DNA from: an uncultured delta proteobacterium | GTDB taxonomy: Bacteria; Myxococcota; Myxococcia; Myxococcales; Myxococcaceae | Direction of reading: 5' to 3' | Length of the DNA: 64,000 bases | NCBI GenBank assembly: GCA_963771175.1 | Contig: CAVYSY010000026.1 | Coordinates: 352,001 to 416,000, forward strand | In this document: positions 10,517-27,614 of the stretch, one piece after another | How the letters are laid out: each line of letters begins with the position of its first letter | How positions within the stretch are numbered: the stretch's first letter is position 1 | Translations under genes and position numbers: made by a program | Notes under the pieces: model-generated | Databases searched by the model: none | What the model was told of the DNA's origin: nothing | What the model saw: the letters and a program-made list of their open reading frames with translations, nothing else

Positions 10517-10854
10517 CGGAAGGACCTCGGAGCGCCGCCAGGAGGCAAGAGACCCCCGCCTGGGCAGGGTGGGGTTCGGTGAAACGGCGGGTCAAGGTAG
10601 CACGACGGCATCCGAAGGCAGCCTCCCGATTACACCAGCGCCGTGTGTCCGACAGCGGGCACACGAAGGGCGTCTGAAAGGCAGGACGGAACCCGGGGGG
10701 GATTCCTGACGGGGGGATTTTCCGGCCCATTTTTCCGGGCCCGGGTCCCCCCCGGCCGGACAGACCTCGCCCTGAACGCCCGGATAGCCTCCCGTCAGGA
10801 GGGGCGGCTGCGCCCCGTCCCTGCGGCTGAATTCAATTTAAAGGAAGCATCACC

Positions 10855-11559
10855 ATGTCCCGCACCATCGTCATCGGAGACCTCCACGGGTGTTACGACG
10901 AAGCCCTGGAGCTTCTCGACCGCGTGGGCGCCACCTCGAGTGATCGGATCATCTTCACGGGTGACCTCGTCGACCGAGGCCCCAAGCGCCGCGAGTGCGT
11001 CGAGCTGGCCATGCAGCACGAGTCCATCCTCGGCAACCACGAGGAGAAGCACCTGCAGCAGCGCCGCCGCAAGGACGCCGACCTCCTGCCGGATCATCTG
11101 GAGACCCGGCAGGTCCTCGGCCCCGAGCACCTCGAGTACTTCGCCACCCTGCCCCACTTCATCCGCCTGCCCGAGCACAACGCCGTCGTCGTCCACGCCG
11201 GAGTGCTGCCCGGAAAGGCCATCGAGGAGCAGGACACCTATCACCTGCTCCATGCCCAGTGCGTGAGGCCCCCGGAGCGCAAGAGCTTCTGGCCCTCCAA
11301 GGCGCCCACCGACTACCGCTTCTGGACGCACCACTGGAAGGGCCCCGAGCGCGTCATCTTCGGGCACACCGTGTTCGACCGGCCGCTCGTCACCGAGCAC
11401 GCGGTGGGCATCGACACCGGGTGCGTCTACGGCCGCTCGCTCACGGCGGTGGTGCTCCCCACGTGGGAGCTCGTCTCGGTGCCCGCGCGCCAGACGTACC
11501 GGGGCGGCAAGGACGTGGCCCTGCTCCCGGTCCACGGCGATGTGAACGTGTTCTCGTGA
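10855..11559 (+). CDS. Calcineurin-like metallophosphoesterase (PPP/ApaH-like)
   Basis: GDLHG, GDLVDRG, GNHE, HAG, FGHT and IDTG motifs; AAGGA RBS. Confidence 0.9.
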   Translation: MSRTIVIGDLHGCYDEALELLDRVGATSSDRIIFTGDLVDRGPKRRECVELAMQHESILGNHEEKHLQQRRRKDADLLPDHLETRQVLGPEHLEYFATLPHFIRLPEHNAVVVHAGVLPGKAIEEQDTYHLLHAQCVRPPERKSFWPSKAPTDYRFWTHHWKGPERVIFGHTVFDRPLVTEHAVGIDTGCVYGRSLTAVVLPTWELVSVPARQTYRGGKDVALLPVHGDVNVFS

Positions 11560-11627
11560 GCTGACCCCGGCCGACAGGGACCTTCGGTGACCTTCGAGCG
11601 CGAACCGGCATAGAATCCAGGGAGCCA

Positions 11628-12383
11628 ATGACTGAGAGTTCGGACAAATCCTCCCGGGATGACGATTCCTCGATGGACACTGGCGATTCCCAGCCCAGTT
11701 GGCGGCTCCGAGGGCCGCTGCAGGATTTCCGGATCGTCAGGAGGCTCAGCCGGACCGGGGAAGAGACTCATGAGAGCGTTCCCGGGATCTTGCTCGTGGC
11801 CGAGCTGGATCGCTGGCTCTCCTCCGTCTCCAGCAGAAGAGTCTGTCACGAGTTGTACGAGGCCGTTACCGGCATGGGCTCAAGCGACCTCTTGCTCTAC
11901 CAACGGTCAGACCGACCGGAGCAGATCAGGCGTCGCCTGGCGAAGGCTTTTCGCGACGGCGAGCTGCTGGCCTTGCCGCTCGGGCCCCCTCGCATCCGCT
12001 CAGGCGGTGGGCCGAAGTCTGCGGGCACTGCCCCCGTCCTGGTCCCCCGACTGCCCGACAGCATGGCGGTGGACAACAGTGCGCCCGAGGAGCAGAAGCC
12101 GAAAGAAACGAAGGCGGACGAGAAGGAAGCCGAGCTGTCGTGGGTGGCCTTCGAGCTCGTCGACGAGGATGGCACACCGATAAGCGACGTCCGCTACCGC
12201 GTGGTTCTCCCCAACGGAGAGGTGCGCGAGGGTACGCTCGATTCCCAGGGCCAGGCGATCATCGAAGATATCGCCAAGGGCACGTGCAAGATCTTCTTCC
12301 CTGACCTGGATGACAGCGATGAGTCTCAGGGCGGCGAATCCGAGAGCGACGAGTCCGACAGCGGCGAAGAGGACGACCTGTAG
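11628..12383 (+). CDS. Hypothetical protein with a C-terminal transthyretin/carboxypeptidase-regulatory-like domain
   Basis: C-terminal WVAFELVDEDGTPISDVRYRVVLPNGEVREGTLDSQG pattern and an acidic tail. Confidence 0.55.
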   Translation: MTESSDKSSRDDDSSMDTGDSQPSWRLRGPLQDFRIVRRLSRTGEETHESVPGILLVAELDRWLSSVSSRRVCHELYEAVTGMGSSDLLLYQRSDRPEQIRRRLAKAFRDGELLALPLGPPRIRSGGGPKSAGTAPVLVPRLPDSMAVDNSAPEEQKPKETKADEKEAELSWVAFELVDEDGTPISDVRYRVVLPNGEVREGTLDSQGQAIIEDIAKGTCKIFFPDLDDSDESQGGESESDESDSGEEDDL

Positions 12384-12425
12384 CCAGTTCTCTCTCGTCC
12401 CAGCGCCAGGGCCCGCGGCAGGCGC

Positions 12426-12575
12426 TCAGGCGGAGAAGATGAACAGCCGCTTCTTGACGACAATCTTGACCCAGGTCTCGGTCTGGGCCTTCAGGCCCGC
12501 GGTCGCGAGCTTCTCGCGGGAGACGGTGACCCGCTTCTTCTCCGATTCCGTTGCCTTGGGTTTCGAGCGCGCCAT
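12426..12575 (-). CDS. Small basic hypothetical protein (49 aa)
   Basis: GAGGAG RBS upstream; MARSKPKATESEKKRV...; codon use typical of a GC-rich genome. Confidence 0.45.
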   Translation of the reverse strand: MARSKPKATESEKKRVTVSREKLATAGLKAQTETWVKIVVKKRLFIFSA

Positions 12576-13010
12576 GGTTGCGTCCTGCTCCTCTTTGGTT
12601 CCTTGACGAATCCTGCCGTGCTTCGCTCCGGTGGGGAAGCCCCAGGGGCTCGGCTCGCCCGGAACGCATTGCCACGCGCTACGGCGCGAGCCACGGGCGC
12701 TGTCGCCAGGTGCGCGGCGCCGTCGTACGCTTCTCCCGTTCCTTCGCAATCTCCCCATCCGTCAGCCAGGGGATTTTGTCGGGGTACTTGAAGGCGAAGA
12801 ACTCGAAGTCATCCTTTCCCAGCGCTCCGGGGCGACCTGCGCTGCAGGGGCGCGGGACCTTGGGCACCTCAGCTTCGGAGTGGAGCGCCTTACGTCCGGC
12901 GGCGGGTTCGATTCCCGCCTCCACCAGCAGCGTGGCGTCAGGCAGGGTGCGGTCCCCCGCTTTTTGAAGGCATTCTCTACCGAGGGTAACCGGGGCAAGC
13001 CCACGGATCT

Positions 13011-14627
13011 TCAGGCGACATCCGAGGCGAGTGCAGTCCTTCTCACCGGGCTGACGCCCGCGGCGCCCACCCCGAGCTCGGCGGCGAGTGCCTCCAGGGC
13101 GGCGGGAGCGATGCGCGGATCCTGCCGCAAGTGACCCAGCGCGCGAGCCGATTCGGCCGCTCCGGGCTCGGCACTCTGCACCTGGACGACGAAGGCCGAT
13201 GCGCACAGCAGGGCTCTCGCGGCACACCCCGCGGTGGAGGCGGAGTCGCGCCCCGCGAGCAGCACGGCGGAGAGGATCTCATTCACCTCCGGGAGCGCAC
13301 CGCCCGCCAGGGTACGCACGCGCGAGAGTGTGGGGAGGATGAAGCGCCGGGGCTCCTCCAGCCGCGCGGCGAGCGCGAGCGTGCGGGCCGCCGTAACGGC
13401 CAGCATCTCCTCGCCATCACCGCCGCCCAGGTGCGCCACACAGCGGCGCGTGAGCCTTACCAGCAGCGGAGCCAACGCCGCGCTGCCTCCAATCAAACCC
13501 AGGGCCTCGTCGAGCAACCGCGCGTGACAGTCCTCGATTCGCGCGGGCAAGGGCCGCACGGGCGCCTCCACTCGCGCCACGGGAGGCTCCTCGAAGGCCG
13601 CGTCCGGAGGAGGTGGAGGCTCCACGGGGAGCAGCACCGGCGGAGGACCCGCGTGGCTCCGCTTGCCTGGCTCCGTCCGAGCAACGGGGAACAGCACGGG
13701 CGGACGCAGTGGGGTCCTGTCGCAGAGAGAGAGCTCCTCGCCAGCCGCACCGGCCAGGTCCTCCGAGAGAATCGAGCGGCGCTCGGGGAAGATCCGGGCG
13801 AAGAGACTGGCGATGTCGAGCTGGTCCACGCAGAGCTGACGCTCCTCGAGGAAGCGACGCAGGATGTCCGAGAGCTCGCGCGCCGAACGGAGCCGGGCCT
13901 CGGGATCCGCTGCGAGGGCGCGGAGCAGCACGGTCCAGAGCGACGGCGGACACCCGGGCAGCGGCTCCAGGCCGCGCTCGTCGAAGGCGCCGATCTGCTG
14001 GACGACCTGGGGAGAGTCCTCGAAGAGGGGCCGCCTGGCGAGCAGCTCGTAGAGGATCGACCCGAGGCGGAAGACGTCGCCGCGGGCCTCCACGAGGCGA
14101 CCTCGGGCCTGCTCGGGCGTGAGGTAGCGGGGCTCGCTCCGGACCCCCCCCGGGTCCACGAGCTTCACTTCACCAAGGCTGGAGATCCACACCAGGGAAG
14201 GCTGGAGGCCACGGTGGCCAGAGCGTGCGCGATGCAGATGGGCGAGGCCCTCGGCCACCTGCTGCACAATGAAACACACCTCGCGCAGCCCGATCGCCCC
14301 CCCGCGCGCCCCCACCTCATCCAGCAGGGAGTGCAGGTTCTCTCCGTCCACGAGCTCCAAGACCCGGCAGGGCTGGCCGTTGCTCACGCCCGTGCCCAAC
14401 ACCCGCACGACATTCGTGTGCGGGAGCGCGGCGGACGTCCTGGCCGAGCCCAGGAAGAGCTCGACGAAGATGACATCCCGCGCGGACTCGGGCAGCAGGC
14501 GCTCGATGCACACGGGCATCTCCGCCCCCTCGGCATCCACCGCCTTACCGAGGAGCACCTCGGCCACGGCGTTTCGCGACAGCGTCCGAACGATGCGATA
14601 GGTCCCCACGAGCGCCCCCAGCCCCAC
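13011..14627 (-). CDS. Ser/Thr protein kinase-like protein, probable pseudokinase
   Basis: Hanks fold (HTNVVRV, ELVDGENL, YLTPEQARG, DVFRLGSILYELL) with degenerate catalytic motifs. Confidence 0.75.
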   Translation of the reverse strand: MGLGALVGTYRIVRTLSRNAVAEVLLGKAVDAEGAEMPVCIERLLPESARDVIFVELFLGSARTSAALPHTNVVRVLGTGVSNGQPCRVLELVDGENLHSLLDEVGARGGAIGLREVCFIVQQVAEGLAHLHRARSGHRGLQPSLVWISSLGEVKLVDPGGVRSEPRYLTPEQARGRLVEARGDVFRLGSILYELLARRPLFEDSPQVVQQIGAFDERGLEPLPGCPPSLWTVLLRALAADPEARLRSARELSDILRRFLEERQLCVDQLDIASLFARIFPERRSILSEDLAGAAGEELSLCDRTPLRPPVLFPVARTEPGKRSHAGPPPVLLPVEPPPPPDAAFEEPPVARVEAPVRPLPARIEDCHARLLDEALGLIGGSAALAPLLVRLTRRCVAHLGGGDGEEMLAVTAARTLALAARLEEPRRFILPTLSRVRTLAGGALPEVNEILSAVLLAGRDSASTAGCAARALLCASAFVVQVQSAEPGAAESARALGHLRQDPRIAPAALEALAAELGVGAAGVSPVRRTALASDVA

Positions 14628-14756
14628 ACCTGCCCGTCTCCCCGAACACTCTCGGGGCCGGGCAACCTGGGCATCGCTAGGAAGCTAGGAAGCTCGCCTG
14701 GACCGGCACCCCGCCCTGAGGTTGGGATTGCCCGCCTTGCAGTGGACATCTCCCGC

Positions 14757-15185
14757 CTAGGGCGCGGTCATGAGGCCCAGCACCTTCGCGCCTGCCGACT
14801 TCGCCCCGTCGAGCGCGGCCACCACCCTACCGTAGGGAGCGCGATCATCCGCCGTGAAGAACAGGACTCTGTCCTGCACGGGCATGGCGGCAAGGATGCG
14901 TGTCAGGCGCGGGACATAGTCCGCCTCGCTGACGGGCTCGTTGTTGAGGGTAAGCAGCCCCTCGGGGCTGATGGCCACCACCACCTGCTGGGTCTCTCGT
15001 GGCGCCTCGCTCGGCGTCTCTTCCTCTGTCAGAGGGAGCTTGACGTCGATGTCCTTCTCCATGAGCGGTGTCACCACCATGAAGATGATGAGCAACACGA
15101 GCACCACATCCACGAGAGGGGTGACGTTGATGTCCGCGTTCGCGTGGCCTTGAGGAAGAACGAAGGCCTTCTTGTGGGTGCGCAT
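14757..15185 (-). CDS. exbD: ExbD/TolR family protein
   Basis: INVTPLVDVVLVLLIIFMV TM motif; ADDRAPYG. Confidence 0.88.
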   Translation of the reverse strand: MRTHKKAFVLPQGHANADINVTPLVDVVLVLLIIFMVVTPLMEKDIDVKLPLTEEETPSEAPRETQQVVVAISPEGLLTLNNEPVSEADYVPRLTRILAAMPVQDRVLFFTADDRAPYGRVVAALDGAKSAGAKVLGLMTAP

Positions 15186-15198
15186 CGTGGACCTCCCG

Positions 15199-15618
<420 letters not shown>

Positions 15619-15798
15619 GAGGGTCCGCGCTCCTTCGTGAGGGGGAGAAAGCAAGACCACCGTACGCGGCCACACGAGGGCGTTGGCCGGCATGCCCTCA
15701 TGCTTCCGTCATGGTTTCGTCATCTCCGCCGACCTGTCAGGAATGAGGGGCCGCCACGTCCCTTCGCGCAGAACGACTCGCGCCCAGCGGAGGGGCAC

Positions 15799-17567
15799 AT
15801 GACCACCCAGAACCAGACCACCCCCACGCTCCCCGAGGCCCAGCGCGGCCCGGCGGAGAAGCTCCTGGACCTCGTCCTCGGGGGCTCCGCGCACCTGTGG
15901 CACAACCGCCCGGGCCTGGACGTGAACGGCGTCTGGCACCCGGCCCAGGCGGCGAAGCCGGACCTCGTCCGCCGCGGCACCCCGGTGAAGCCCGGCCTCT
16001 TCGTGCCCGCCGCGGTGAAGCTCTACGGCCAGCTGCTGGACATCTACCGGCTCAACACGGACCTGATGGCGCACTTCGCCTCCTACGCGCTCACGCAGAC
16101 GGACTGGCGCGATCTCAAGGTGGCCACCTGCGCGCTGATGCTCGTGCAGAGCCACTCCGGGCAGCCCGTGCGCGAGGACGACGGCTCCATCGCGTTCCAC
16201 GACGACGACTTCCGCGCCATCGGCGAGGCCATGCTCCTCCACTACGAGCGCAAGTCCACGCGCATGCTCACGCCCAAGGCGGTGCTGCGGGTGGCCGAGC
16301 TGCTCGAGACGCCGGAGATCGCCCGCCTCAACCGCGAGGCCGGCTTCGGTGACCCCGCGTCCCGCAAGCCGCCGCTCGGCCGCTGGAAGCGCGTGGCGAC
16401 GAAGTGGCTGCGGCTGCGCGAGCAGAACCTGCCCATGCTCCAGGGCCTGGTGAAGGCCGGCTACAAGGAGACGCTCAAGAGGATCGCCCGCAAGGCCGGT
16501 TACAAGCCGGTGTCGCAGGCCTTCTTCGAGGTGCTCGGCTGGAAGCAGAAGCAGGCGGCCGCGGGCCACCGCTCGGTGGGCCTGGAGGGACTCAAGCTCG
16601 TCAAGCGGGAGCGCTTCGACGGGCTCTCGGAGGCGGAGATCTGCGAGTGGATCGAGCTGGAGCGCCTCTCCTACAAGGAGGTGGTGGGCCGGCTGCCCAA
16701 GGACCTGGGCCTGACGCCGGCCATCATGGCGGCGCTCCTGCCCTCGCTGTCGGACCGCGACTTGCGCATGCTGACGCCCACGCTCGAGGAGCTGGGGCTG
16801 ATGTCCGACCCCGCGATCCGCGCGCGCTGGGAGAAGGCGGTCGCAGACGGCGACCGACCAGCGCGCGCTCCACATCGCGAAGAACGTCCGCAGCCAGGAG
16901 CTGAAGGCGAAGCTGGAGGAGGCGAGCGACAACGCGGCGAAGGCGGCGGTGGCGGAGGCGACGGCCGAGACGGACGTGAGGGTGATGTTCCTCATCGACA
17001 AGTCGGGCTCCATGGAGGGCGCCATCGAGCAGTCCAAGGAGGCGCTGTCGCGCATCCTCGCCGGCTTCCCGCTGGAGAAGCTGCACATCGCGTCGTTCGA
17101 CACGATGGGCACGGTGCTGAAGCCCAAGGCGGCGAGCCGGGCGGCGGTGCAGCACATGCTCGCAGGGGATTCAGGCGTCGGGCGGCACGACGCACGCGGC
17201 CGGTGTGCATGCGCTGCACCGGGCGGGAGTGCGGGTGCCGGAGGAGGCGAAGCTCGTCGTCATCGTCGTGGGTGACGAGGCCGGCGAGGCGGGTGACCAG
17301 TTCGCCCGCGCCTTCCGCGAGTGCGGCTACAGCGTGGCCGCCATGGCGCTGCTGGTGAGCGTGGCCAGCACGCGGGGCAGCACCGTGCGCACGTGCGCGG
17401 CGCAGCTCCGGGTGCCGTTCAGCGAGGTGCAGGTGGACCAGTTCGAGGACCCGTACCAGGTCCCCCGCGTGCTCAAGGCGCTGATGGACGCGCCGACGGC
17501 GACCGGGGCCAGCCAGTCCGGCTGGGTCGAGCGGGTGATGCGCACGCCGCTGCTGAAGGTGGCGTGA
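15799..17567 (+). CDS. vWA domain protein with a large helical N-terminal region (possibly TROVE-like); frameshifts near 16850 and 17170
   Basis: GGAGG RBS; C-terminal vWA with MIDAS FLIDKSGSM and IVVGDE. Confidence 0.75.
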
Positions 17568-17583
17568 GAGAGGAGTGGGTGTC

Positions 17584-18575
17584 GTGGACTACCGGAAGTT
17601 CCTCGGGAAGGTGGAGTCGGCGGTGCTGCCCTACTTCGGCGGCGCCTCCGTCGACGCGGCCTCGCGGCGCCTCCGCGTGTCCACGCCGCCCGCTCCGGGC
17701 TGGTGGCGCTTCGACGTGCAGGGGCGCACCGCCACCGCGCGGGAGCCGGCCGAGCCGGAAGGGCTCGACGGGCTCCCGCTCATTCGTGGACATCTCTGGG
17801 GCTCGCGGTTGGTGCGCGAGGGCGCGGTGGCCGAGCCGGTGAAGCTCCTCCCCGAGGAGGAGCCGCCGCGCTTCTCGCCGCTGCGCGCCCGGCGCTGGCA
17901 TGACGGGACGCTCGTCTTCGAGGGGCTCGACTTCGAGGGCGAGGCCGAGGGCACCGCACGCCTCCTGTTGGAGGAAGGCCGGGCGCTCGCGGAGGTGAAG
18001 GCCGTGCCGGCGTCGCTGCGGGCGGCCTTCGGTTACGCGGTGCTGGAGGGTGCCTCGCGCGCGCTCGGCATCCGCTTCTCCCCGGTCGAGGTGCGTGGAC
18101 AGGTGCTGTCCGTGTCCGAGGGAGGCCGTCCCGCGGCCGAGGCCCGGCTGCGGGCCCTGGCCGCCGAGCGCGAGGCCCACGTGCGGGCAGTGGAGGCACG
18201 GCCACGGGCGCGTGGAGGTCCAGCGGCAGCGGGCGGTGGAGGAGGTCCGGCTGCAGGCGGAACTGGCGCGACTGCGGAGCCAGCCGCGTCACCTGCAGCA
18301 GCAGGCGCAGGGGGCCGTGCGGGTGGAGCGGGCGTTGGAGGCGGCGGGGGCGCGGCTGCTCGACACGCGGCGGCTGGGGAGCGAGCGGCTCGAGGTGACG
18401 TTCGGCTTCATGGGCGAGCGCTTCATCAGCATCGTCGAGGCGAGACACGCTGCAGGTGGTGGACGCGGGCATCTGCCTCGCGGGAGCGGACCGGGAGGTG
18501 ACGCTGGAGAGCCTGCCGTCGGTCATCCGCGAGGCCATCGAGGACGACGTGCTGGTCATCACCCGGCACGCGTGA
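17584..18575 (+). CDS. Hypothetical protein with a C-terminal DAGICL motif (candidate E2-like); frameshifts near 18200 and 18443
   Basis: GAGGAG RBS; reconstructed C-terminus is TLQVVDAGICLAGADREVTLESLPSVIREAIEDDVLVITRHA*. Confidence 0.65.
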
Positions 18576-18585
18576 GGGCCTTCCC

Positions 18586-19048
18586 ATGGACAAGCGCGAG
18601 GTCTGCCTGCTCATCGGCCGGGACGGGACGGTGCTGTGGAGCGATGCCTCGGACAGTCCCGTGCTGGCTGCCGGACTCGCGCGCACGCTGGGAGGCCATC
18701 TGGCGGCTGCGCGACGAGCTGGAGGAGATTGCTCACAGCCACCCGGTGGGACCGCTGGGCTTCAGCGCCGAGGACGAGACGACGATGGCGGCGCTCACCG
18801 AGGCGCTCGGACGGCCAGTGCGCTTCTCGGTGGTGGCGCCCGACGGCATGGTGGTGCGCGAGGACGGTCGAGACTTCATCGTCACCGAAGAGCCCGCCTG
18901 GGCCGGACACATGCGGGCCGACTCCGGAATGAGCTCCCTCGACCATCCGGCGGTAACCGCACCTCCTCTCCGCCCTCCAGAAGGTGACACTCGTCGGTTC
19001 GACGGAGACTTCTTCGAGGCGCATGAGCCGGTAGGATGCGGCGCGTGA
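18586..19048 (+). CDS. JAB/MPN+ (JAMM) metalloisopeptidase; frameshift near 18667
   Basis: N-terminal Glu (REVCLL) and an exact HxHx7SxxD motif: HSHPVGPLGFSAED. Confidence 0.8.
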
Positions 19049-19308
19049 GCGCGAACGAGCACGACGATGAGGGACGGACGGATCGCTGGCAGAGCCTCGT
19101 GACAGGGGCCTTCCTGCTCGAGGAGTCGCTGAAGGCAACCCCTCCCCCGAGTGACACACGGCCCCCCAGAGCGCTCGCGGTGAGCTACCTCGACAGCGTG
19201 CTGGAGGTGTTCCCCTCCAGCGTGGACCCGGTCGAGGACTTCGAGGGCTACGCCATCCGGCGGATGGCGCTCGCCCTGCGCCGGGCCCTGGAGGAGAGCG
19301 GACGCTGA
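19045..19308 (+). CDS. Small hypothetical protein coupled to the JAB gene
   Basis: GTG at 19045 overlaps the JAB TGA; acidic/helical, 87 aa. Confidence 0.55.
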   Translation: MSANEHDDEGRTDRWQSLVTGAFLLEESLKATPPPSDTRPPRALAVSYLDSVLEVFPSSVDPVEDFEGYAIRRMALALRRALEESGR

Positions 19309-19324
19309 GCGCTCCGGGCCGGGC

Positions 19325-19985
19325 TCACACCGGACGGAGCTCGGAACGGTAGCCGCCCTGCTCGACGGGAGGCTGGGTCCCGAGCTTCTGCTCGACGGCC
19401 TTCACGCCGAAGGCGCTGGGGTCGAGCTGGTCGCGGCCGGAGAAGACGCCGCGGGCGCGGCCCAGCAGCCACCCGAGGCCCTTCACCGCATCCCGGAGAA
19501 TCCGGATGGGCGCCGCGCGCGACATGAGCGGCGGGCTGAGCTGGTCGAGCTCCTCGCCCTTCAGGGTCATCTCCTTCACCCCCACGCCTTGCGAGTACAC
19601 CATCTCCGCCGCCCAGCCAGCCGGTATAGGAGGCGAAGGCGAACGCGCCCAGTCCCAGGAGGGTGGAGAGCAGAGAGGGACGGTGGCTCGCCCGCCATGT
19701 GGCGACCCCGAAGGCCCCCAGCACGATGACGACGTTGCCGAGCCCGTGCAGGAACATCATGTCCTTGGAGTGCTTGTCGGTCTTCACCTCCTGGGAAGCG
19801 GCCATCCCGGCCAGACCCGCGAGCAGCCCGCCCGCCGCGACGCTCCACCACAGCGTCCGGCCCGCCCGGTCCAACCTCCGGTCCTGGCTGAACGTCGCCG
19901 CCAGGTCGACGATGACCGTGGACGGCAACAGCGCCAGTGGAGCGTGAATCAACATCGGGTGCAGCTCGTGTACGCGCGTTTCCAT
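19325..19985 (-). CDS. DUF2231-like membrane protein (frameshift near 19605)
   Basis: HELHPMLIHAPLALLP, HGLGN and YTGWLGG motifs. Confidence 0.7.
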
Positions 19986-20177
19986 GGGCTTCCTCCTCGT
20001 CCAGGGAACCTTGGGGCACGCGGCCCCACTGGCAACCCGCCCGCCTGTCCGTCGGGAGTCACGGTTCCCGACGGAGGAGCATCCGCGGGGGAGGGCAGGC
20101 GAGGCGGCAGCCCCCTTGTCGGGGAGGACGGGCGTGGGCAGACCCCGGGCACGGGCGCGCTGCCCCAGGAGGGCTCG

Positions 20178-20394
20178 GTGAAATCCGCGGGGCTGATGCT
20201 GGTGCTGGCGGGGCTCGTCCTCGCCGTCGTGGGGCTGCTGGTGTACTCGGGCGCGCTGTCCTGGTTCGGCCGCCTGCCGGGCGACCTGCGCTGGGAAGGC
20301 GAGCACACCCGGCGTCTACGTCCCGCTGACCTCGATGCTGCTGCTCTCCGTGCTGCTCAGCTTGCTGGCCTTCGTGGTGCGCCGGCTCCTCTAG
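20178..20394 (+). CDS. DUF2905-like small membrane protein (frameshift near 20310)
   Basis: WFGRLPGDLR...YVPLTSMLLLS. Confidence 0.75.
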
Positions 20395-20516
20395 CTCCAG
20401 GGCCTCGCGATGCGCGCGTGCATTCGTCGTGTGGAGTTCACTCGGCGCCGACAACACTTGGGTGCTGGCGCACAGTGACTAGGCTTGCACTCGCTCACCT
20501 TCAGGAGGAGCACTGG

Positions 20517-20999
20517 ATGACGAACGAGTCACGCCCGCCGCAAGAGGCCGAACAGCAGAACACGGCCGAGCTGATGGCCCCGCCCACCACCCCTTCCATG
20601 GGCCAGCGCCCCGCCTCCGTGACGCCCACGGGCCGGGCCGGTGCCCGGCGGAAGATGGGCAAGACGGGGCCGGCGGCCAAGAAGGGCCGCACCGTCGCGA
20701 AGCGCAAGCCGGAGAAGAAGCGCCCCGCCAAGCAGGCGAGGGGGGCGGCGGCACGCAAGACCACGCGTGCTGGCGCGACCAGCAGCTTCCGCAAGAAGGA
20801 GGGCTGGAAGTCCGAGGCCACGGTGGGCGGCCGCAAGCCCTCCGCCTCGCAGAAGAAGGGCCCCACCAAGAAGGCAGGTCCAGCCCGGAAGACCGTGGCC
20901 CGGCGCGCCACCGCCGCCAGGACCGCCACCGGGCGAGGCACGGCCGCGAAGCGCACCACCGCGAAGCGCACCACCGCGAAGCGCACCACCCGCCGCTAG
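20517..20999 (+). CDS. Lys/Arg/Ala-rich histone H1-like basic protein
   Basis: AGGAGG RBS; low-complexity K/R/A/T sequence ending in three AKRTT units. Confidence 0.6.
   Translation: MTNESRPPQEAEQQNTAELMAPPTTPSMGQRPASVTPTGRAGARRKMGKTGPAAKKGRTVAKRKPEKKRPAKQARGAAARKTTRAGATSSFRKKEGWKSEATVGGRKPSASQKKGPTKKAGPARKTVARRATAARTATGRGTAAKRTTAKRTTAKRTTRR
20946..20990 (+). repeat. Perfect 15-bp tandem repeat x3 (GCGAAGCGCACCACC)
   Basis: Directly visible; encodes AKRTT x3. Confidence 0.9.
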
Positions 21000-21015
21000 G
21001 CGCCCTCCCCGCTCC

Positions 21016-22761
21016 TCACGGCCTGACACCAGGAGGGGCCTGGAGGCGTCGCCGCTCGAGCACCCGCCGGAATCCGCTCTCCTTCTCGGAGGAGACGCAC
21101 ACCGCGTGGCCGTCGAGCACGCCACACACCACCGACTCCGGGTGGCGCAGGAAGGGCGCCAGGTACGCGGGGTGGACCACGTAGACGCTCTCGGGTTGGA
21201 ACTCGCCGCGCCCAGCCTCCTGCTGGAGCGCGGTGCAGTAGGCCTGGGCCCGGGCAGGGTCCACTCGCGCGAGGTATGCGCTGTTGAAGGTCATCCCCAG
21301 GGAGGCCGCCTTGTACGCGAACATGGGAGTGAAGGGCGCGCCGGCTCCGGGGTGCGGACAGCCTCGGCCGTTCCCGTCGTGGAGCTGCGGCGGGAACAGC
21401 ACGAGGTGGCGGTAGTCGTCCTTCATCCGGTCCCACTCGGGCGAGCGCAGGGCGTTCCAGGACTGGCCCTGGAAACGCTCCTGGGCCACGGCCGGGCCGA
21501 GGTCGAACATCTGCACGCCCACGGCGAGAGCGAGCAGCCCCGTGCCCACCCACGGTCGGCGGCGCCACGCACCCAGCACGAGCGCGAGCGCCCCCGTCAG
21601 CAAGGCGTAGTGCAGCGGCCAGATGAAGCGCCCCGAGGAGCGGAACGGCTCCACGAGCCGCATCACCGGCCCGTAGAGCCCCTGCAGGTCCAGCACCGGC
21701 CGACCCGCGAAGGTGACGCGCGAGGAGAGCGCGAACACGCCCAGCAGGAAGCAACCCACCGCCAGGGGCAGCGCGCGCTTCCACTGGGGCGTCCACTCCG
21801 AGTGCCGCGCCAGCCGCGACACCAGCGCGGAGCCCACGCCCAGCCCGAGCAGGAGCAGCACGCCCAGGCCCAGGTAGCCGAAACCCTCGTACTGGCCGCG
21901 CGCCGTGTTCAGGGTGGGCAGCAGCCGGGACCAGCCCATGGGATTGACGAGCGTGAGCAGGTCCGACGAGACATCACCGAAGCCCTCGATGCCGGCCGGG
22001 GTGCTCGTGCCCACGTAGCCGAGCAGCCAGAAGAGGCCCAGCAGGAGCGCGACGAGCCCCCCCAGGGAGAGTCCCACCCCACGCCAGGAGAGCGTCCCGT
22101 CCACCAGACGCAGCCGCAGCAGCGCCGCCGCCGCCAGCACCAGCCCCATGGCGGACAGGTACGGGTGGATGGTGGCGCTCAACGCCATCAGGAGGAACAT
22201 CACCGCCACGGCGCGCCGCGCCCCCGCCCGGTCCGGCCAGTCGCGCAGGTTCACCCAGAAGAGCCCGAGCAGGAGCCAGTGCGCGCAGAGGCTGTCATGC
22301 CCCAGGCGCCACATCAGCACGGGCGCGAGCGCGAAGAGCGCGCCTCCGAGAAAGTGCGCGGCCAGGTTCGGGGTGAAGAGCGCCGTCAGCCGGGCACCCA
22401 GATAGCCCTGGAGGGCGAAGCACAGCGCGAGCCAGGGGCCGATGTACTGGAACGGGAACGGCAGCAGCCCCGCGAAGGGCCGCAGCAGCAGGGCCACCAG
22501 GGGGATGGAGTCCATGTAGCCCAGGGTCGTCCCGAGCGGGTGCGCCAGACCGGGCACGGCCCCGAGGGGAAGCCCCAGCAGCGGCTCGTTGCGGAAGAAG
22601 AGCCAGCCCGTGAGGTGCTGGGACCAGTCGCCCACCATCAGCCAGTCCACCTGGCCCGGGTTCAGCGTCCGGTCTCCATGACTCAGGATGAACCAGAGCA
22701 CGCCGAAGGCCGCCGCCAGCAACGCGGGCAGGTGCTCCCGCCCCCGCTGCCACACGTTCAT
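21016..22761 (-). CDS. Multi-TM membrane protein (DUF6311/GT-C glycosyltransferase-like)
   Basis: GDWSQHLTGW, YMDSIPL, YEGFGYLGLG and FRSSGRFIWP; many TM helices. Confidence 0.7.
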   Translation of the reverse strand: MNVWQRGREHLPALLAAAFGVLWFILSHGDRTLNPGQVDWLMVGDWSQHLTGWLFFRNEPLLGLPLGAVPGLAHPLGTTLGYMDSIPLVALLLRPFAGLLPFPFQYIGPWLALCFALQGYLGARLTALFTPNLAAHFLGGALFALAPVLMWRLGHDSLCAHWLLLGLFWVNLRDWPDRAGARRAVAVMFLLMALSATIHPYLSAMGLVLAAAALLRLRLVDGTLSWRGVGLSLGGLVALLLGLFWLLGYVGTSTPAGIEGFGDVSSDLLTLVNPMGWSRLLPTLNTARGQYEGFGYLGLGVLLLLGLGVGSALVSRLARHSEWTPQWKRALPLAVGCFLLGVFALSSRVTFAGRPVLDLQGLYGPVMRLVEPFRSSGRFIWPLHYALLTGALALVLGAWRRRPWVGTGLLALAVGVQMFDLGPAVAQERFQGQSWNALRSPEWDRMKDDYRHLVLFPPQLHDGNGRGCPHPGAGAPFTPMFAYKAASLGMTFNSAYLARVDPARAQAYCTALQQEAGRGEFQPESVYVVHPAYLAPFLRHPESVVCGVLDGHAVCVSSEKESGFRRVLERRRLQAPPGVRP

Positions 22762-22912
22762 CCCAGCTCCACCTGTGTTCCCCATCGGTCCCCCCCTTAG
22801 CGGAAAGGCGAGCCGAAGCGTACCGCCTTCCCGTGGGCCCGGCGGGCCATCGGCCGCGCCCCGGACTCCGAGGCGGTGGACGGGCCCCGGAGGTCTTGCC
22901 ATCGTCCGGGCC

Positions 22913-23858
22913 ATGCGAATTGCTCGTCTGCTGACCCTCTCCGCGCTGGCGTTCGCGGCCCCCGCCGCTCGCCGCCCCCCCCAAGGGAAAGACCACCATG
23001 ACGAAGCCCTCCGAGACAAAGCCCTCCGAGACGAAGCCGCCCGACCTCGAGGCCGAGACGCGCGCCTGGCACCAGAAGCGCATCGCGAGCCTCACGTCCG
23101 ATGATGGCTGGCTCACCCTGGTGGGGCTGCACTGGTTGAAGGAAGGCGCCAACGACTTCGGCTCCTCGGAGGAGAACGAGTGCGTCTTCCCCGCGGGGAC
23201 GCCGGCGCGCATCGGCACCCTCACCCTGAAGGGCGGCAAGGTGACGCTGGCCGTCGCGCCGGGAGTCACCCTCACCCGGGCCGGCCAGCCCTTCACCGGA
23301 GGCGAGCTGCGCGACGACTCCGACGGCACGCCGGATGTGCTCTCGCTGGGGACGCTGCGCTTCTTCGTCATCCGCCGGGCAGAGCGGATTGGCATCCGGG
23401 TGAAGGACTCGGAGGCCGAGGCGCGCAAGAAGTTCCACGGCATCCCCACCTACCCGGTGAGCGCGGCCTGGCGCGTCGAGGGCCGCTTCGAGCCGGCGGC
23501 CACGCCCCGGAAGCTGTCGGTGCCCACGATGCTCGGCACGGTGGAGGAGATGAACTCGCCGGGCACGGCGGTGTTCACGGTGAACGGCCAGGAGTACCGG
23601 CTGGACGTCACGCAGGAGCCCGGGGACCCGCAGCTCTTCATCATCTTCTCGGACCTGACCAACCGCACGGAGACGTACGGCGCGGGCCGCTTCCTGTACG
23701 CGGACCTGCCCCGGGACGGGAAGGTGGTGCTGGACTTCAACCAGGCCTACAACCCCCCGTGCGCCTTCTCGCCCTACGCGACGTGCCCGCTGCCTCCGCC
23801 GCAGAACCGTCTGAAGCTGCGCGTGGAGGCCGGCGAGAAGCGCTACGGCGACCACTGA
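22913..23858 (+). CDS. DUF1684-like secreted protein (frameshift near 22980)
   Basis: GWLTLVGLHWL, TYGAGRFL and LDFNQAYNPPCAFSPYATCPLPP. Confidence 0.85.
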
Positions 23859-23955
23859 GTCGTCAGGAACACCGTCCGCCTCACGTCTCCCAAGCGGAAA
23901 ACCCGGCCGGGCCGAGCCCTCGGTCCGGGCCGGAGTGGACGCGAGGAGGCGTGAC

Positions 23956-24201
23956 ATGGCGACGCTGAACATCACCTACAACGGGCTGTCCTCGGACCTG
24001 CCGCTGGAGCTGGACGGCCACGTGGCGGACGTGGACGTGCGGCGCATCGCGGTGGAGGTGGTGCGCTCGGGCGGGGCGCCGGGGCTGCACATCGCCAACC
24101 TGCGCGAGGACGCCTTCGCCCACTACGTGGTGGACCGGTTCCGCGGGCCCCGGGGCGAGGAGCGCATCTACCTGCGGCCCAAGGTGCCCTTCGGGGCGTG
24201 A
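23956..24201 (+). CDS. Candidate ubiquitin-like (beta-grasp) protein, 81 aa, ending PKVPFGA
   Basis: GAGGAGG RBS; beta-beta-alpha-beta pattern with an extended tail and penultimate Gly; directly upstream of ThiF. Confidence 0.65.
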   Translation: MATLNITYNGLSSDLPLELDGHVADVDVRRIAVEVVRSGGAPGLHIANLREDAFAHYVVDRFRGPRGEERIYLRPKVPFGA

Positions 24202-24214
24202 GGGAGGGCCCACC

Positions 24215-24793
24215 ATGCGCATCGTCTTCTGCGGAGTGGGGGCCATCGGCTCCACGGCGGCGGTGCTGTGCCGCAACCTGGAGGCGACGCTCGTCTTCAT
24301 CGACTTCGACCGGGTGGAGTCCAAGAACCTGCTGGCGCAGGCCTTCGTGAAGCCCTCGGTGGGGAAGAACAAGGCGGAGGCGCTGAAGCTCCAGTTGCTC
24401 AACCTGCACGGGGTGAAGGCCGAGGCCTTCGGCGTGCGGGTGACGCGGGACAACGTGGCGGCGCTGTGCGGGAGCGCGGACCTGCTCGTCGACTGCTTCG
24501 ACAACCAGGAGAGCCGGCTGCTGCTGAGCGGGTTCGCCCGGAGCGCGGGCAAGCCGCTGGTGCACGGGGCGCTGGCGGCGGACGGCACCTTCGGGCTGGT
24601 GCGCTGGGACGAGCGCTTCGTCCCGGACGCCGAGGACACCGTGGGCCAGGCCACCTGCGAGGGCGGCGCGCACCTGCCGCTCATCGGCCAGCTCGGCGCC
24701 ACGCTCGCACGGGTAGTGCAGGACTTCGTGAAGCACGGCACTCGCCGTGACGCGATGGTGAGCCTCGTGGCGGTGACGCCGACCGCGAGCTGA
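24215..24793 (+). CDS. ThiF/MoeB-family E1-like adenylyltransferase
   Basis: GVGAIG, IDFDRVESKNL, GKNKAE and VDCFDN motifs; candidate catalytic Cys in QATCEG. Confidence 0.88.
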   Translation: MRIVFCGVGAIGSTAAVLCRNLEATLVFIDFDRVESKNLLAQAFVKPSVGKNKAEALKLQLLNLHGVKAEAFGVRVTRDNVAALCGSADLLVDCFDNQESRLLLSGFARSAGKPLVHGALAADGTFGLVRWDERFVPDAEDTVGQATCEGGAHLPLIGQLGATLARVVQDFVKHGTRRDAMVSLVAVTPTAS

Positions 24794-24828
24794 AGGAAGG
24801 GGGATATGCTCCAGGGCACGAGGTCCTC

Positions 24829-25422
24829 ATGCACCGTGTCGCGTTGCTCCTCTGTTCCCTCTGTGTCCTCTGCCCGCGGGTAGCGCTGGCGGAAGACTTC
24901 GTGACCCGCATCCAGAACTGGTTCTCGGGGCTCGGGAAGCCCGCGGCCCCGCCCCCTCCCGAAGACCTGGGTGCCCGGAACACCTTCACCATCAACCCGA
25001 TGGTGCTCCGGGACGAGCGGCTCGGCGTCGAGTACGAGCGCGCCTTCGGCCGGGGCTTCTCCGTCTACCTCGCGCCCGAGTTCGCCTATGGCCAAGCGGA
25101 GCACTCCTGGAACCTGTCGCTCGGAGGGACGCTGGGCACGCGCTTCTTCGTGCTCGGCAGCGCCCCCAGCGGCATCTACTTCGGACCCGAGTTCGGCGTG
25201 GACTACCAGCGCGCCTACCAGGACCAGAAGCTGCGGAAGGGCTTCGGGCTGGGGCTCGGCGGGAACGTCGGCTGGACCCTGGTGCTCTTCAACCGCCTCA
25301 CGGTCGCGGCGGGGCTCTCGGCCCAGTACCGGGCCATCCCGGACCTCGAGTCCTCCGAGGAGGAGGCCATCCGTGTGGAGCTCGTGCCCACCCCTCGACT
25401 GGCCTTCGGCGTGGCCTTCTGA
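24829..25422 (+). CDS. Putative small outer-membrane beta-barrel protein
   Basis: Signal peptide, amphipathic strands and a terminal Phe (LAFGVAF). Confidence 0.65.
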   Translation: MHRVALLLCSLCVLCPRVALAEDFVTRIQNWFSGLGKPAAPPPPEDLGARNTFTINPMVLRDERLGVEYERAFGRGFSVYLAPEFAYGQAEHSWNLSLGGTLGTRFFVLGSAPSGIYFGPEFGVDYQRAYQDQKLRKGFGLGLGGNVGWTLVLFNRLTVAAGLSAQYRAIPDLESSEEEAIRVELVPTPRLAFGVAF

Positions 25423-25430
25423 CCCGGGGC

Positions 25431-26207
25431 CTACCGCCGCTTCACCGCGAAGGGCCCGAAGGCCTGGTCGGCCGGCATCACCTCGACGAGGTTGATGTTC
25501 ACATGGGCCGGTCGCGACGCCGTCCACACCACGATGTCCGCGATGTCCCGCGCGGTGAGCGGCTCCATGCCCGCGTACGTGGCGTTGGCGCGCGAGGCAT
25601 CGCCCTTGAAGCGCACCAGTGAGAACTCGGTCTCGACCATGCCGGGCTCGATGTTGGTGACGCGCACCCGGGTGCCGATCAGGTCCGCCTTGAGGTTCTG
25701 GGAGAACTGGTGGACGAAGGCCTTGGTGGCGCCGTAGACGTTGCCGCCCGGGTACGGGTAGGTGGCCGCCACCGAGCCGATGTTCACCACGTGCCCGCGG
25801 TTGCGCGCCACCATGCCCGGCAGCAGCGCGCGCGTCACGTAGAGCAGGCCCTTGCAGTTGGTGTCGATCATCCGCTCCCAGTCATCGAGCGAGCCCTGGT
25901 GCGCGGGCTCGAGCCCCAGGCCCAGGCCGGCGTTGTTGACGAGGATGTCCACCTCGGAGAAGGGCGGGGAGAGCCGGGCGAGCGAGTCCTCCACCTCGCG
26001 GCGCTGGCTCACGTCGAAGAGGAGGACGTGCGAGGGACCCGGCAGGCGCGCGGCGAGCTCCTCGAGGCGGGACTCGCGGCGGCCGGTGAGGACGAGGCGG
26101 GCACCAGCGGCGGAGAGGAGCTCGGCGCAGGCCGCGCCGATACCGGAGCTGGCCCCCGTGACGAGGGCGGTCTGGCCCGAGAGAGGGCCTTGGACAGGAG
26201 CGTTCAT
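25431..26207 (-). CDS. Short-chain dehydrogenase, YdfG-like
   Basis: TGASSGIG, NNAG, YPGGNVYGATK and IEPGMV. Confidence 0.9.
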   Translation of the reverse strand: MNAPVQGPLSGQTALVTGASSGIGAACAELLSAAGARLVLTGRRESRLEELAARLPGPSHVLLFDVSQRREVEDSLARLSPPFSEVDILVNNAGLGLGLEPAHQGSLDDWERMIDTNCKGLLYVTRALLPGMVARNRGHVVNIGSVAATYPYPGGNVYGATKAFVHQFSQNLKADLIGTRVRVTNIEPGMVETEFSLVRFKGDASRANATYAGMEPLTARDIADIVVWTASRPAHVNINLVEVMPADQAFGPFAVKRR

Positions 26208-26227
26208 GGAGCCGCCATACTACCGGC

Positions 26228-27614
26228 TCACGGGGAGGGCCAGCGCTCCAGTTCCATCTCGTCGAGGAACACCGTGTGGTTGTTGCCGTTCAGCGGCTGG
26301 ACGGCGATGCCGCGCACGGCCTTCAGGGTGAGCCCGTCGTTGGGTGCGCCCGCGGGCTGCCAGTCGTTCCGCCGGGTGAAGGCCGACAGGGGCACGCTCA
26401 TCCACTTCCAGCCGACGTTGTCATCCTTGAAGCCGAACTCGAAGCGCTCGGCCGAGTCCGCGCTGTCGCCGTTGTCCCACAGCTCCAGGCGGAAGGAGTC
26501 TCCGGTGTTGGTGCCGTGGAACCAGAAGTTCAGGTAGTGCCCCTGGCTCCAATCCAGGGGCGTCTCGAAGGTGCGCGCGAGGCTGGCCTGCGACGAGCTG
26601 GCGATGTCGTACTCCAGCACGAACGTGTTCCCCACGTGCCCATACTCATGCAGCCAGACGTTGAGCCGCGAGCCCGACCCGACCGACATCGTCCAGGTGC
26701 CGAGCGCCTCGAAGTCCTCCACCACCTCCTTCGGAGCGGCCAGCCCGTAGCGGACCTCGTCATAGAAGGAGACCATCGGCGAGCCCGGCCAGGTGAAGGA
26801 GCCCATCCAGTACTCGGTGCCCGGACCGACGCCGGGCCAGAAGTTCATGATGATCCGCCCCGGATGGGAGGGCAACGACCCCAGCGGGCCCGTCGCGCTC
26901 TGGACACGCGAGCCGTCGACGTACCAGTGGAGGGCCTCGCGCGTCCATTCGAGGCCGTAGGTGTGGAAGGCCTCCGCGGCGTCGAAGGGAAGGTCGAGCC
27001 CCGCGTAGTGGCCCTGTCCGTTGACCACGTAGTTCATCTGCATCCGCCGGGTGTTCAGCCCGACGAAGGCGATGTCGATGCCATCCCAGCGCGTATTCTC
27101 AGCCGGGCCCGTGTAGATGCTGAAGGACGTCAGCGTGCCCGAGCCGCGCGCGGGCTTCATCCGGACCTCGTAGCGCCCGTAGCCGTGGAGCCGCGTGGAG
27201 GCGACCTCGCCCGAAGCATAGGGGCGGCCGGAGCACCCGTCCGGGCACGGCGTCTTGTCGAGCTGCAGCTCCAGGATCCCACCGTTGGCCCGCACGTGGT
27301 CGGCACGCCAGCCGGCATTGAAGTCCTCGCTGCTGGCCCAGCCATCCGAGCGGCGCCAACGCGTGGTGTCGAACGTGTCGAACGTGTCGTCGAAGGTCCC
27401 AGGGCCCTCCAGCCAGGAGAGTGTCGGGGGGCCACCGTCGACGCCGCCGACATAATCGCTACTTCCCGCGTCCGTCCCACCAGCCACCGCCACCTCCTCC
27501 CTGCCCCACACCTCCATCGGAGGTGGAGATGCCGTCGTAGTCGGACCAGCGGCAGCCCGCCTGGAGCAGACCGGTCGCCAGCAGGAGCAGTCCCCATCTC
27601 ACGTTGCGAGCCAT
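26228..27614 (-). CDS. GH16 (licheninase-like) + CBM11-like lipoprotein with catalytic Glu residues absent; frameshift near 27500
   Basis: AAGGAGG RBS, signal peptide MARNVRWGLLLLATGLLQAGC; YGRYEVRMKP, FHTYGLEW, WYVDG and IMNFWPG; active-site segment reads WDGIDIAF. Confidence 0.75.

Follow-up and report, generated by a model that had tools for sequence, protein, structure and literature searches.

Positions 352,001 to 416,000 of contig CAVYSY010000026.1, from an uncultured member of the Myxococcaceae, make up the 64,000-nucleotide window analysed in the current study, and five genes on its forward strand look like an undescribed relative of the bacterial systems that combine an E1 activating enzyme, a JAB/JAMM metallopeptidase and a ubiquitin-like protein (Ubl). 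The upstream module is a triad consisting of g1, which encodes a vWA protein (15799..17567; ~590 amino acids (aa), with a helical N-terminal region of ~380 aa and a C-terminal vWA domain carrying a metal ion-dependent adhesion site, MIDAS), g2, which encodes a Cys or ‘DAGICL’ protein (17575..18575; ~330 aa), and a JAB/JAMM metallopeptidase gene (18586..18956; ~122 aa, with the motif HSHx7SxxD and Prok-JAB similarity). The downstream module comprises the gene of a small protein, a candidate ubiquitin-like modifier precursor (23956..24201; 81 aa, ending in RIYLRPKVPFG and then A), and that of a miniature E1-like adenylating enzyme of the ThiF family (24215..24793; 192 aa), which begins 13 bp past the small-protein stop codon. 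We consider it probable that the two modules constitute one Myxococcota-specific system in which the precursor would be trimmed by the JAMM peptidase, adenylated by E1, transferred by way of cysteines and attached covalently to a protein. The features on which the original prediction for this DNA was founded, namely the vWA and DAGICL proteins, the exact JAMM motif, the protein ending in FGA and the ThiF/E1, were all present where it had placed them.

The G+C content of the region is 70% and spurious open reading frames (ORFs) are abundant; genes were called from frame plots of G+C at third codon positions (GC3) combined with three-frame translation. The encoded proteins share 93–98% identity with those of same-genus genomes, in which all of the genes are intact and arranged as in the window, and homologues of g2 occur in 89 of 301 genomes sampled evenly across the phylum; on both grounds the five are judged to be real genes rather than chance ORFs. 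The small-protein ORF spans 23935–24201 and would yield 88 aa from a GTG codon; the 81-aa product starts at the ATG at 23956, which is the start used by relatives.

The proposal that the two modules belong to one pathway, and the survey for contiguous neighbourhoods that was suggested alongside it, are both borne out by other Myxococcota. In L012, a locus from another family, the five genes directly adjoin one another, some of them overlapping, with products of 591, 317, 116, 81 and 192 aa. Scanning a single genome for each GTDB species yielded 80 loci that contain a homologue of g2, almost all of them titled Myxococcota; g1 adjoins g2 in 78 of these, and the JAMM gene lies alongside in 78. 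The small-protein gene follows the triad within 300 bp, as part of a contiguous operon, at 16 of the 80 loci (contiguity is also seen in L144) and at 34 it is situated further downstream, by 0.3–10 kb and without exception on the same strand; E1 alone stands behind the triad at two, neither gene is present within at least 9 kb at 15, and at 13 the flank was too short to judge. Where both genes of the downstream module were seen, E1 begins 6–105 bp behind the small-protein gene in 45 of 47 loci. For triads with no small-protein gene nearby, a copy was located elsewhere in the genome in all 15 cases tested (13 as a single intact match, one split over two frames and one containing a TGA codon).

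The small protein is encoded by one copy per genome and its presence follows that of the triad. It was found together with g1 in the same 21 of 41 relatives, both being missing from the same 20, and in the 301-genome sample it was detected in 90 genomes and g2 in 89, the 89 being identical, although the genomes counted are kin and hence non-independent. Identity across families amounts to 60–75% for four of the five proteins. Within lineages the system is present in 16 of 17 genomes of the window’s genus and in 29 of 29 and 18 of 18 genomes of two other genera; even allowing for kinship, the joint occurrence also takes in separate patches, namely one of five genomes in one genus, six of eight in another and the same five of 20 in a distant family. 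Because the five genes are contiguous elsewhere and co-occur strictly, the interpretation of the two modules as a single Myxococcota-specific five-gene system is strongly supported by comparative sequence data.

Several loci display individual arrangements. In L047 (11005-12017) and L094 the E1 gene lies directly behind the JAMM gene and the small-protein gene is found on another contig, the small-protein match in the L047 genome being split over two frames. An alpha-amylase-family gene is located between the small-protein and E1 genes of an otherwise contiguous operon in L066 (11611-13980), and g2 is separated from the JAMM gene by an ORF of 326 aa, unmatched in Pfam, in the otherwise contiguous operon of L079 (10992-11969). 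A lone 21-residue match to the C-terminus of the small protein (G254:C44:205823-205885), in the one genome of the phylum sample that is counted for the small protein but devoid of g2, may be the remnant of a lost system.

The JAMM product contains the HxHx7SxxD motif (HSHPVGPLGFSAED in the window), in which H48, H50, S58 and D61 are invariant, with E3 retained in at least 90% of 21 sequences. Prok-JAB (PF14464) is matched with an E value of 0.0026 by the window piece and of 4.2e-07 by an orthologue (30.3 bits, the cut-off being 25), and with both the E...HxH...S..D motif and the family model in place the protein is predicted to be a JAB/JAMM metallopeptidase. Its presumed substrate, the small protein, is among the best conserved parts of the system, being 64–74% identical to the L012 copy in an alignment of 21 sequences. 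The C-terminal RIYLRPKVPFG is invariant in this alignment (R70 and Y72–G80), and the consensus becomes RPK(V/T)PFG when a divergent clade of ~40% identity is included. Behind the Gly follow 0–13 unconserved residues (A, AR, AC, AH, S, CS, NRG, SSAR, GGARGA, AARYGLSRCVES and others), and the presence of this tail covaries with that of the JAMM gene. A tail of 1–13 residues occurs at all 49 loci with an intact JAMM gene, or at 50 of 50 if L144 of the divergent clade (tail AAP) is counted, whereas the protein ends exactly at the Gly in all four cases without one (L070, L086, L145 and L146). The JAMM gene is missing from L070 and lacks its N-terminal third in L086, while L145 and L146, which belong to the same clade as L144, are four-gene operons without a JAMM gene in which the small protein stops after PKTPFG; at least three independent JAMM losses thus underlie the covariation. 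Since the tail accompanies every intact JAMM gene and is absent wherever that gene is not intact, maturation of the small protein by the JAMM peptidase through exposure of its C-terminal Gly, as the original prediction had envisaged, is well supported.

The designation of the small protein as a putative Ubl is based on its size, the position of its gene, its terminal Gly, its likely processing and its E1 partner; it possesses a conserved C-terminal Gly that would be exposed by processing and is encoded beside an E1. On visual judgement, its likely strands and helix come in an order that would fit a beta-grasp fold. No Pfam match was obtained for any of the 21 members and no sequence or profile match in the PDB, a profile comparison (hhalign) with the ThiS/MoaD proteins of the same genomes revealed no similarity (prob 0.3), and a search of the ESM Atlas returned the protein’s own family only. 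At three loci (L035:12245-13138, L084:10983-11888 and L085) the JAMM domain is fused to a C-terminal low-molecular-weight phosphatase/ArsC-like domain (CTHNSRRS) in a 298-aa product, the L084 copy of which matches Pfam LMWPc (E 1.2e-10). Neither a small-protein nor an E1 gene was seen in the 5.5–9.6 kb flank of these three loci, and whole-genome searching places the small protein of L035 and L084 elsewhere in the genome.

The E1-like protein matches ThiF (PF00899) with an E value of 6.7e-21 (75 bits against a cut-off of 28.1) and retains the motifs required of an adenylating enzyme, as GxGxxG (G7, G9 and G12), DFDRV (D30–V34), K53, DxxDN (D93, D96 and N97), R101 and TCEGG are all invariant. 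The Cys of the last motif, C148, is also kept, as TCEDG, in the ~40%-identical clade. The closest PDB relative is MoeB (E 3.1e-12), with Uba4 and ThiF also near, and C148 aligns with the crossover-loop Cys of Uba4 and lies one residue off C187 of MoeB; the reference positions of this Cys are C184 in ThiF, C187 in MoeB and the corresponding residue of Uba4. With GxGxxG, DxxDN, the family model and a crossover-loop Cys, the protein has the hallmarks of the ThiF/MoeB family, which upholds its earlier description as a ThiF/E1 with a candidate catalytic Cys. At 192 aa it is among the smallest E1 enzymes known. Its predicted role, the activation of the exposed Gly within one pathway with the JAMM peptidase, is well supported by comparative data. 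A complex prediction involving two copies of E1 and the small protein, with g2 as the scored partner, gave ipSAE values of 0.01 and 0.00 and, having been run without controls, constitutes evidence neither way.

In a set of 1.84 billion cluster representatives, 883 are related to g2 (E ≤0.001), and the names given among the 120 homologues listed are all ‘hypothetical’ save for one UniRef label, ‘Band 7 domain-containing protein’. The window pieces and intact orthologues of g2 gave no match to Pfam or NCBIfam, to PADLOC or, by sequence and profile searching, to the PDB. The AlphaFold (AF2) model of the protein, which has a predicted local distance difference test (pLDDT) score of 82, comprises two small beta-barrels, long helices, a variable disordered linker and a C-terminal Cys domain made up of a helix, a four-stranded meander, the Cys loop and a further helix. 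For the barrels, the best VIA-align match is the tandem oligonucleotide/oligosaccharide-binding (OB) inter-domain of Mpa, the mycobacterial proteasomal ATPase, and is a middling one (Z 7.2, root-mean-square deviation 3.2, 101 residues); generic OB matches were obtained besides. The Cys of VDAGICLAG is invariant (16/16 and 24/24) and is also present in the divergent clade. Foldseek returned nothing at E ≤0.001 for the whole model, the Cys domain alone found generic alpha+beta-meander folds as its best matches (Z ≤6.6), and no E2 or ubiquitin-conjugating (UBC) structure was among the matches listed by Foldseek or VIA-align for either query. The sole likeness to E2 is the order of the secondary-structure elements of the C-terminal domain, which resembles that of the E2 core. 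The assignment of this protein as an E2 in the original prediction was not sustained by these searches or by Pfam, and g2 is best described as a candidate thioester acceptor or adaptor.

The vWA domain of g1 is recognised by Pfam VWA_2, with E values of 2.4e-05 for the window piece and 3.9e-11 for an intact orthologue, and its MIDAS (DxSxS...T...D) is intact, D401, S403, S405, T464 and D493 being invariant. The N-terminal ~380 residues have no Pfam or PDB sequence match, PDB searches of g1 yielding vWA matches only. Language-model features assign g1 to TROVE/DUF2828 with a score of 0.84, which serves as a lead only. Like Ro60/Rsr, g1 has a two-part architecture and a similar size, and a full-length profile alignment with the myxobacterial TROVE-vWA proteins was obtained (hhalign prob 96.7, E 4.7e-10, 347 columns, of which ~190 lie upstream of the vWA domain). 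In contrast to Ro60/Rsr, Pfam TROVE (PF05731) never matched g1 in six-frame searches of five genomes at E ≤10 and of 301 genomes at E ≤0.001, and the N-terminal regions align weakly: once the vWA parts are removed the same register is recovered with prob 8.3 and E 0.0041. A Ro60-like identity for g1 is plausible, the balance of the sequence evidence being roughly even. The genome of the window also encodes a separate Ro60-like paralogue, a 559-aa TROVE-vWA ORF (G000:C51:85814-86011; L139:841-2517, minus strand), whose divergent clade is represented in L136-L142, and canonical Rsr-like proteins occur in other Myxococcota (L131-L134).

From these elements a sequence of events can be proposed. 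The 81-aa protein would be made as a precursor, from which the JAMM peptidase would remove the residues behind the invariant C-terminal Gly, and the 192-aa E1 would then adenylate the exposed Gly using ATP. The activated acyl group may pass to the invariant crossover-loop Cys of E1 and from there, most likely, to the invariant Cys of g2, or else directly to a lysine of a partner, which would amount to covalent protein modification that the JAMM peptidase could also reverse. A role as scaffold, as sensor or as target, possibly on a particle of RNA and protein, might fall to the vWA protein and the OB-fold region of g2. In this scheme the linkage of the genes, their strict co-occurrence, the conservation of the catalytic residues and the covariation of tail and JAMM gene are observed, and adenylation, thioester transfer, conjugation, the target and any involvement of RNA are inferred. 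A more specific form of this proposal, in which a chromosomal, vertically inherited Ubl conjugation system of social myxobacteria employs a new, non-UBC Cys domain as its E2 equivalent and operates on, or is steered by, a particle of Ro60-like and OB-fold proteins, is one that we regard as rather unlikely; if true, it would represent ubiquitin-like control of an RNA-surveillance or ribonucleoprotein complex in bacteria, and not phage defence or a cofactor pathway.

In the window each of the three upstream genes shifts frame twice, so that six single-base insertions within 3.2 kb split g1, g2 and the JAMM gene, the small-protein and E1 genes being intact. The frames of g1 run over 15799-16839, 16841-17170 and 17169-17564, with +1 insertions at 16845 and 17162 (17161/2); g2 is read in three frames, with indels at ~18204-18211 (18204-18212) and 18445 and with QVVDAGICLAG in the third; and the JAMM gene has +1 insertions at 18663 and ~18936, its true stop being at 18954-18956 rather than 19048 once the last extra base is removed (relatives encode 122–126 aa). 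The reading frames were compared with those of L025, the closest relative fetched (~95% nucleotide identity), and of a second same-genus genome, and contigs of four public runs were aligned over 15799-19308. The run contigs omit the bases wherever these positions are covered (16845, 17162, 18211 or a 25-base gap at 18204, 18445, 18663 and 18936/18938), and the extra bases are carried by none of the runs covering them nor by the relatives, owing to which the six frameshifts are probably assembly errors. Isolated +1 insertions relative to a same-genus genome were also observed at 31680, 31879, 32490, 32622, 32835, 41989, 42979 and 46422, in stretches otherwise 86–93% identical to it, and a similar one lies in a neighbouring membrane-protein gene (19606-19608). 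The marker completeness of the genome is 81.7%, compared to 96–100% in 15 of 17 same-genus relatives, and together with the scattered extra bases this suggests single-base insertion errors throughout the assembly. Portions of g1, of g2 and of the JAMM gene (window 16200-18777) are represented in soil RNA-seq contigs (run X15) with 90–99% likeness, and these contigs, as DNA carry-over is possible, offer at most a weak hint of expression in close relatives.

The crowding of all six frameshifts into the triad, next to an intact downstream module, could alternatively signify that the triad is a decaying pseudogene cluster in this genome, with genuine frameshifts and only the small protein and E1 still functional, and the covering runs, which stem from other strains (X1 differs at 63 of 3510 letters), do not confirm the window’s own bases. 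We hold this to be very improbable, as every lesion is a single-base insertion unaccompanied by stop codons or large deletions, coding GC3 is kept at 0.9–1.0 in every frame segment, insertions of the same kind recur at the other positions given above, and the genome as a whole is of low completeness. A number of observations nevertheless weigh against the conjugation system that we favour. The runs of other strains give no proof that the window’s own DNA is unbroken; the Cys domain of g2 lacks an E2/UBC match and, when modelled alone, is of low confidence over the entire stretch that follows the Cys; the small protein is without Pfam, PDB or ThiS/MoaD profile similarity and has a single Gly rather than a Gly-Gly end; and E1, compared with ThiF/MoeB, is missing ~30 residues at the N-terminus as well as the C-terminal part, where those enzymes carry the arginine finger and the zinc domain, respectively, for which reason full activity of E1 on its own is not assured. 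Trimming of a carrier’s tail by a JAMM peptidase is moreover reported for sulfur-carrier pathways, QbsD/QbsE being one such case and CysO/Mec+ a related one, and trimming alone is therefore no proof of conjugation. A sulfur-carrier pathway is an alternative explanation for these genes, to which such trimming would lend support: E1 would adenylate the small protein to yield a C-terminal thiocarboxylate, the Cys residues of E1 and g2 would relay persulfide sulfur, the JAMM peptidase would only mature the carrier, and the recipient of the sulfur would be a base in RNA, or else a small molecule, with which the OB-fold and Ro60-like proteins deal. The identity of the solved structures closest to E1 (MoeB, Uba4 and ThiF), a conserved Cys at the site where acyl-disulfide or persulfide intermediates are said to form in ThiF and Uba4, the lack of a recognisable E2 and the possible nucleic-acid-binding parts (the OB-like barrels and a possible TROVE region) would all be in keeping with it. 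Despite these points we judge it unlikely. Rhodanese, cysteine desulfurase, PP-loop thiolase and biosynthetic enzyme genes are absent from the operons and flanks examined, the vWA MIDAS points to protein-protein binding, and the small protein ends in a single Gly. The ThiS/MoaD family itself (PF02597) was sought in six frames in 31 genomes, where one to four ordinary genes each were found and none was listed at the small-protein position; these genomes thus keep separate ThiS/MoaD genes. As a ThiS/MoaD sulfur carrier the small protein was rejected, given that it has no match to this family, ends in PFG plus a tail and is not flanked by pathway genes. The statement of the original prediction that no thiamine or molybdopterin genes are present was examined in part and held to that extent: the sole ThiS/MoaD-family match in the window’s genome lies on another contig, and the scanned neighbours are unrelated.

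Anti-phage defence was the analogy drawn in the original prediction, and under it the small protein would be conjugated to phage proteins, or an immune effector would be regulated upon infection. The characterised bacterial E1/JAB/Ubl operons, those of Type II CBASS and of Bil, serve in immunity (PMC11601596), vWA domains recur in conflict systems (PMC7159879), and there is a weak match of E1 to the E1-E2 (Cap2) models of PADLOC, with a best E value of 4.6e-10. Genomic context and PADLOC lend the analogy no support, and we deem it improbable. The system is single-copy and inherited by lineage, with the near-universal presence in three genera and the cross-family identity of four of its proteins that are described above. 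PADLOC found no match for g1, g2 or the small protein and only a marginal BrxA match for the JAMM protein (E 0.021), and no effector gene is present. The flanks of ten contiguous operons consist of unrelated, heterogeneous genes of housekeeping type (cytochromes, thiolase, cyclophilin, GGDEF, kinases and carbonic anhydrase), without a conserved defence neighbour; an HNH endonuclease and a Uma2 endonuclease, both at one locus, are the only defence-like genes among them. No conserved neighbour of any kind and no sulfur-metabolism, thiamine, molybdenum cofactor, cysteine or cofactor genes were observed in the scanned flanks. The context is read as chromosomal and vertically inherited rather than as a defence island.

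The claim that the architecture does not correspond to a characterised system also stood, since the defining features of Bil, Type II CBASS, Bub and the vWA-MoxR FtsH ternary systems are not found here. No description of the five-gene set was encountered in full-text searching that included Iyer et al. 2006, with subscription papers and supplements outside its scope, and for the window pieces and orthologues Pfam, NCBIfam and PADLOC recognise only vWA, Prok-JAB and ThiF, in addition to the marginal BrxA. PMC11601596 describes E1 plus JAB/JAMM in Bil and Type II CBASS, a Ubl in Bil and a JAMM that can expose a reactive C-terminus, and in these respects the systems are alike. Unlike Bil, the present E1 is a single 192-aa domain rather than IAD-AAD-CYS and no UBC-type E2 was detected by Pfam or fold searches; without the multidomain E1 and the UBC E2, and with no PADLOC Bil match, membership of Bil was discarded. 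With regard to Type II CBASS, there is no E2-E1 fusion, only the adenylation domain matches the PADLOC E1-E2 models, and no cyclase (CD-NTase) or effector occurs in the scanned operons and flanks, so that assignment to the Cap2/Cap3 systems was likewise rejected. The chromosomal, vertically inherited context sets the present genes apart from both. Bub (6E/DUF6527) resembles the present system as a bacterial Ubl pathway that has diverged, whose E1 is minimal and of the homodimer type and whose Ubl is matured by a JAMM enzyme, and it is described in the same source as lacking catalytic cysteines and as always including a DUF6527 serine protease (PMC11601596); here the cysteines of E1 and g2 are invariant and no DUF6527 match was found in the scanned operons and flanks, and Bub membership was not accepted. 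The vWA-MoxR FtsH ternary conflict systems likewise combine a vWA protein with JAB, E1 and Ubl components, chiefly in bacteria of multicellular or social habit, and further possess AAA+ ATPases of the MoxR and FtsH kinds, an E3 of RING type, a fusion of Ubl with E2, and effectors that are caspase-like (Kaur et al. 2020, PMC7159879). Neither the operons examined nor their surroundings yielded a MoxR, FtsH, RING E3, Ubl-E2 fusion or caspase-like effector, and this assignment too was set aside.

The conjugation system proposed here would, by analogy, work most like two E2-less systems, from which it would be set apart by having a modifier of an orphan family and, besides, two further proteins that are obligatory. 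The archaeal SAMP/UbaA/HvJAMM1 system and TtuB/TtuC of Thermus carry out E2-independent Ubl conjugation and double as sulfur-transfer systems. They resemble the present one in combining a small protein that terminates in Gly with an E1 that is single-domain, of the MoeB/ThiF type and equipped with a crossover-loop Cys, in having a JAMM peptidase, and in the lack of a canonical E2 or E3. They differ in that the modifier described here is without ThiS/MoaD similarity and has a single Gly with a trimmed tail, its E1 is much smaller (192 aa), and the vWA and OB/Cys proteins are obligatory.

The two modules are separated in the window by intervening DNA (18957..23955) that is absent from the contiguous operons and lies outside the system. 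It contains a small ORF (19036-19308, plus strand, coding by GC3), membrane-protein ORFs, a basic, Lys/Ala/Thr-rich repetitive ORF (KRTTAKRTTAKRTT...; 20540-20996, plus strand) that has no Pfam match and whose composition presumably recalls histone H1-like proteins, and two DUF genes identified by Pfam, which encode a DUF6311 membrane protein (21016-23019, minus strand) and a DUF1684 protein (22998-23858, plus strand). It represents ~5 kb of unrelated, lineage-specific cargo inserted between the third and fourth genes in this genus. Such cargo varies by genus, and in L025 the stretch from the JAMM gene to the small ORF is longer by ~4 kb; the space that follows the JAMM gene is on these grounds interpreted as an insertion hot spot and not as a functional boundary. 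The small ORF had earlier been regarded as coupled to the JAMM gene; the two overlap only through the run-on of the frameshifted JAMM frame, and as the ORF is confined to 9 of the 80 loci, along with L009-L011, and its distance from the JAMM gene varies between ~30 bp and 4.1 kb, it was dismissed as a sixth component. A tRNA scan of window positions 10000-27000 found none.

To our knowledge, the bacterial ubiquitin-like pathways described so far (CBASS Cap2/Cap3, Bil and Bub) are mobile defence modules, in contrast to which the genes characterised here form a core-like chromosomal system that is present throughout the large-genome Myxococcaceae and in some other Myxococcota. It is distinguished by an orphan modifier family, by two obligatory partner proteins and by having no recognisable E2. 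The system is found in records titled Myxococcus xanthus, and hence in a genetically tractable model organism, and the covariation of the JAMM gene with the tail of the small protein furnishes a ready hypothesis for a bench test. If conjugation proves to be true, it would widen the range of prokaryotic ubiquitin-like signalling and might link such signalling to Ro60-type RNA biology.

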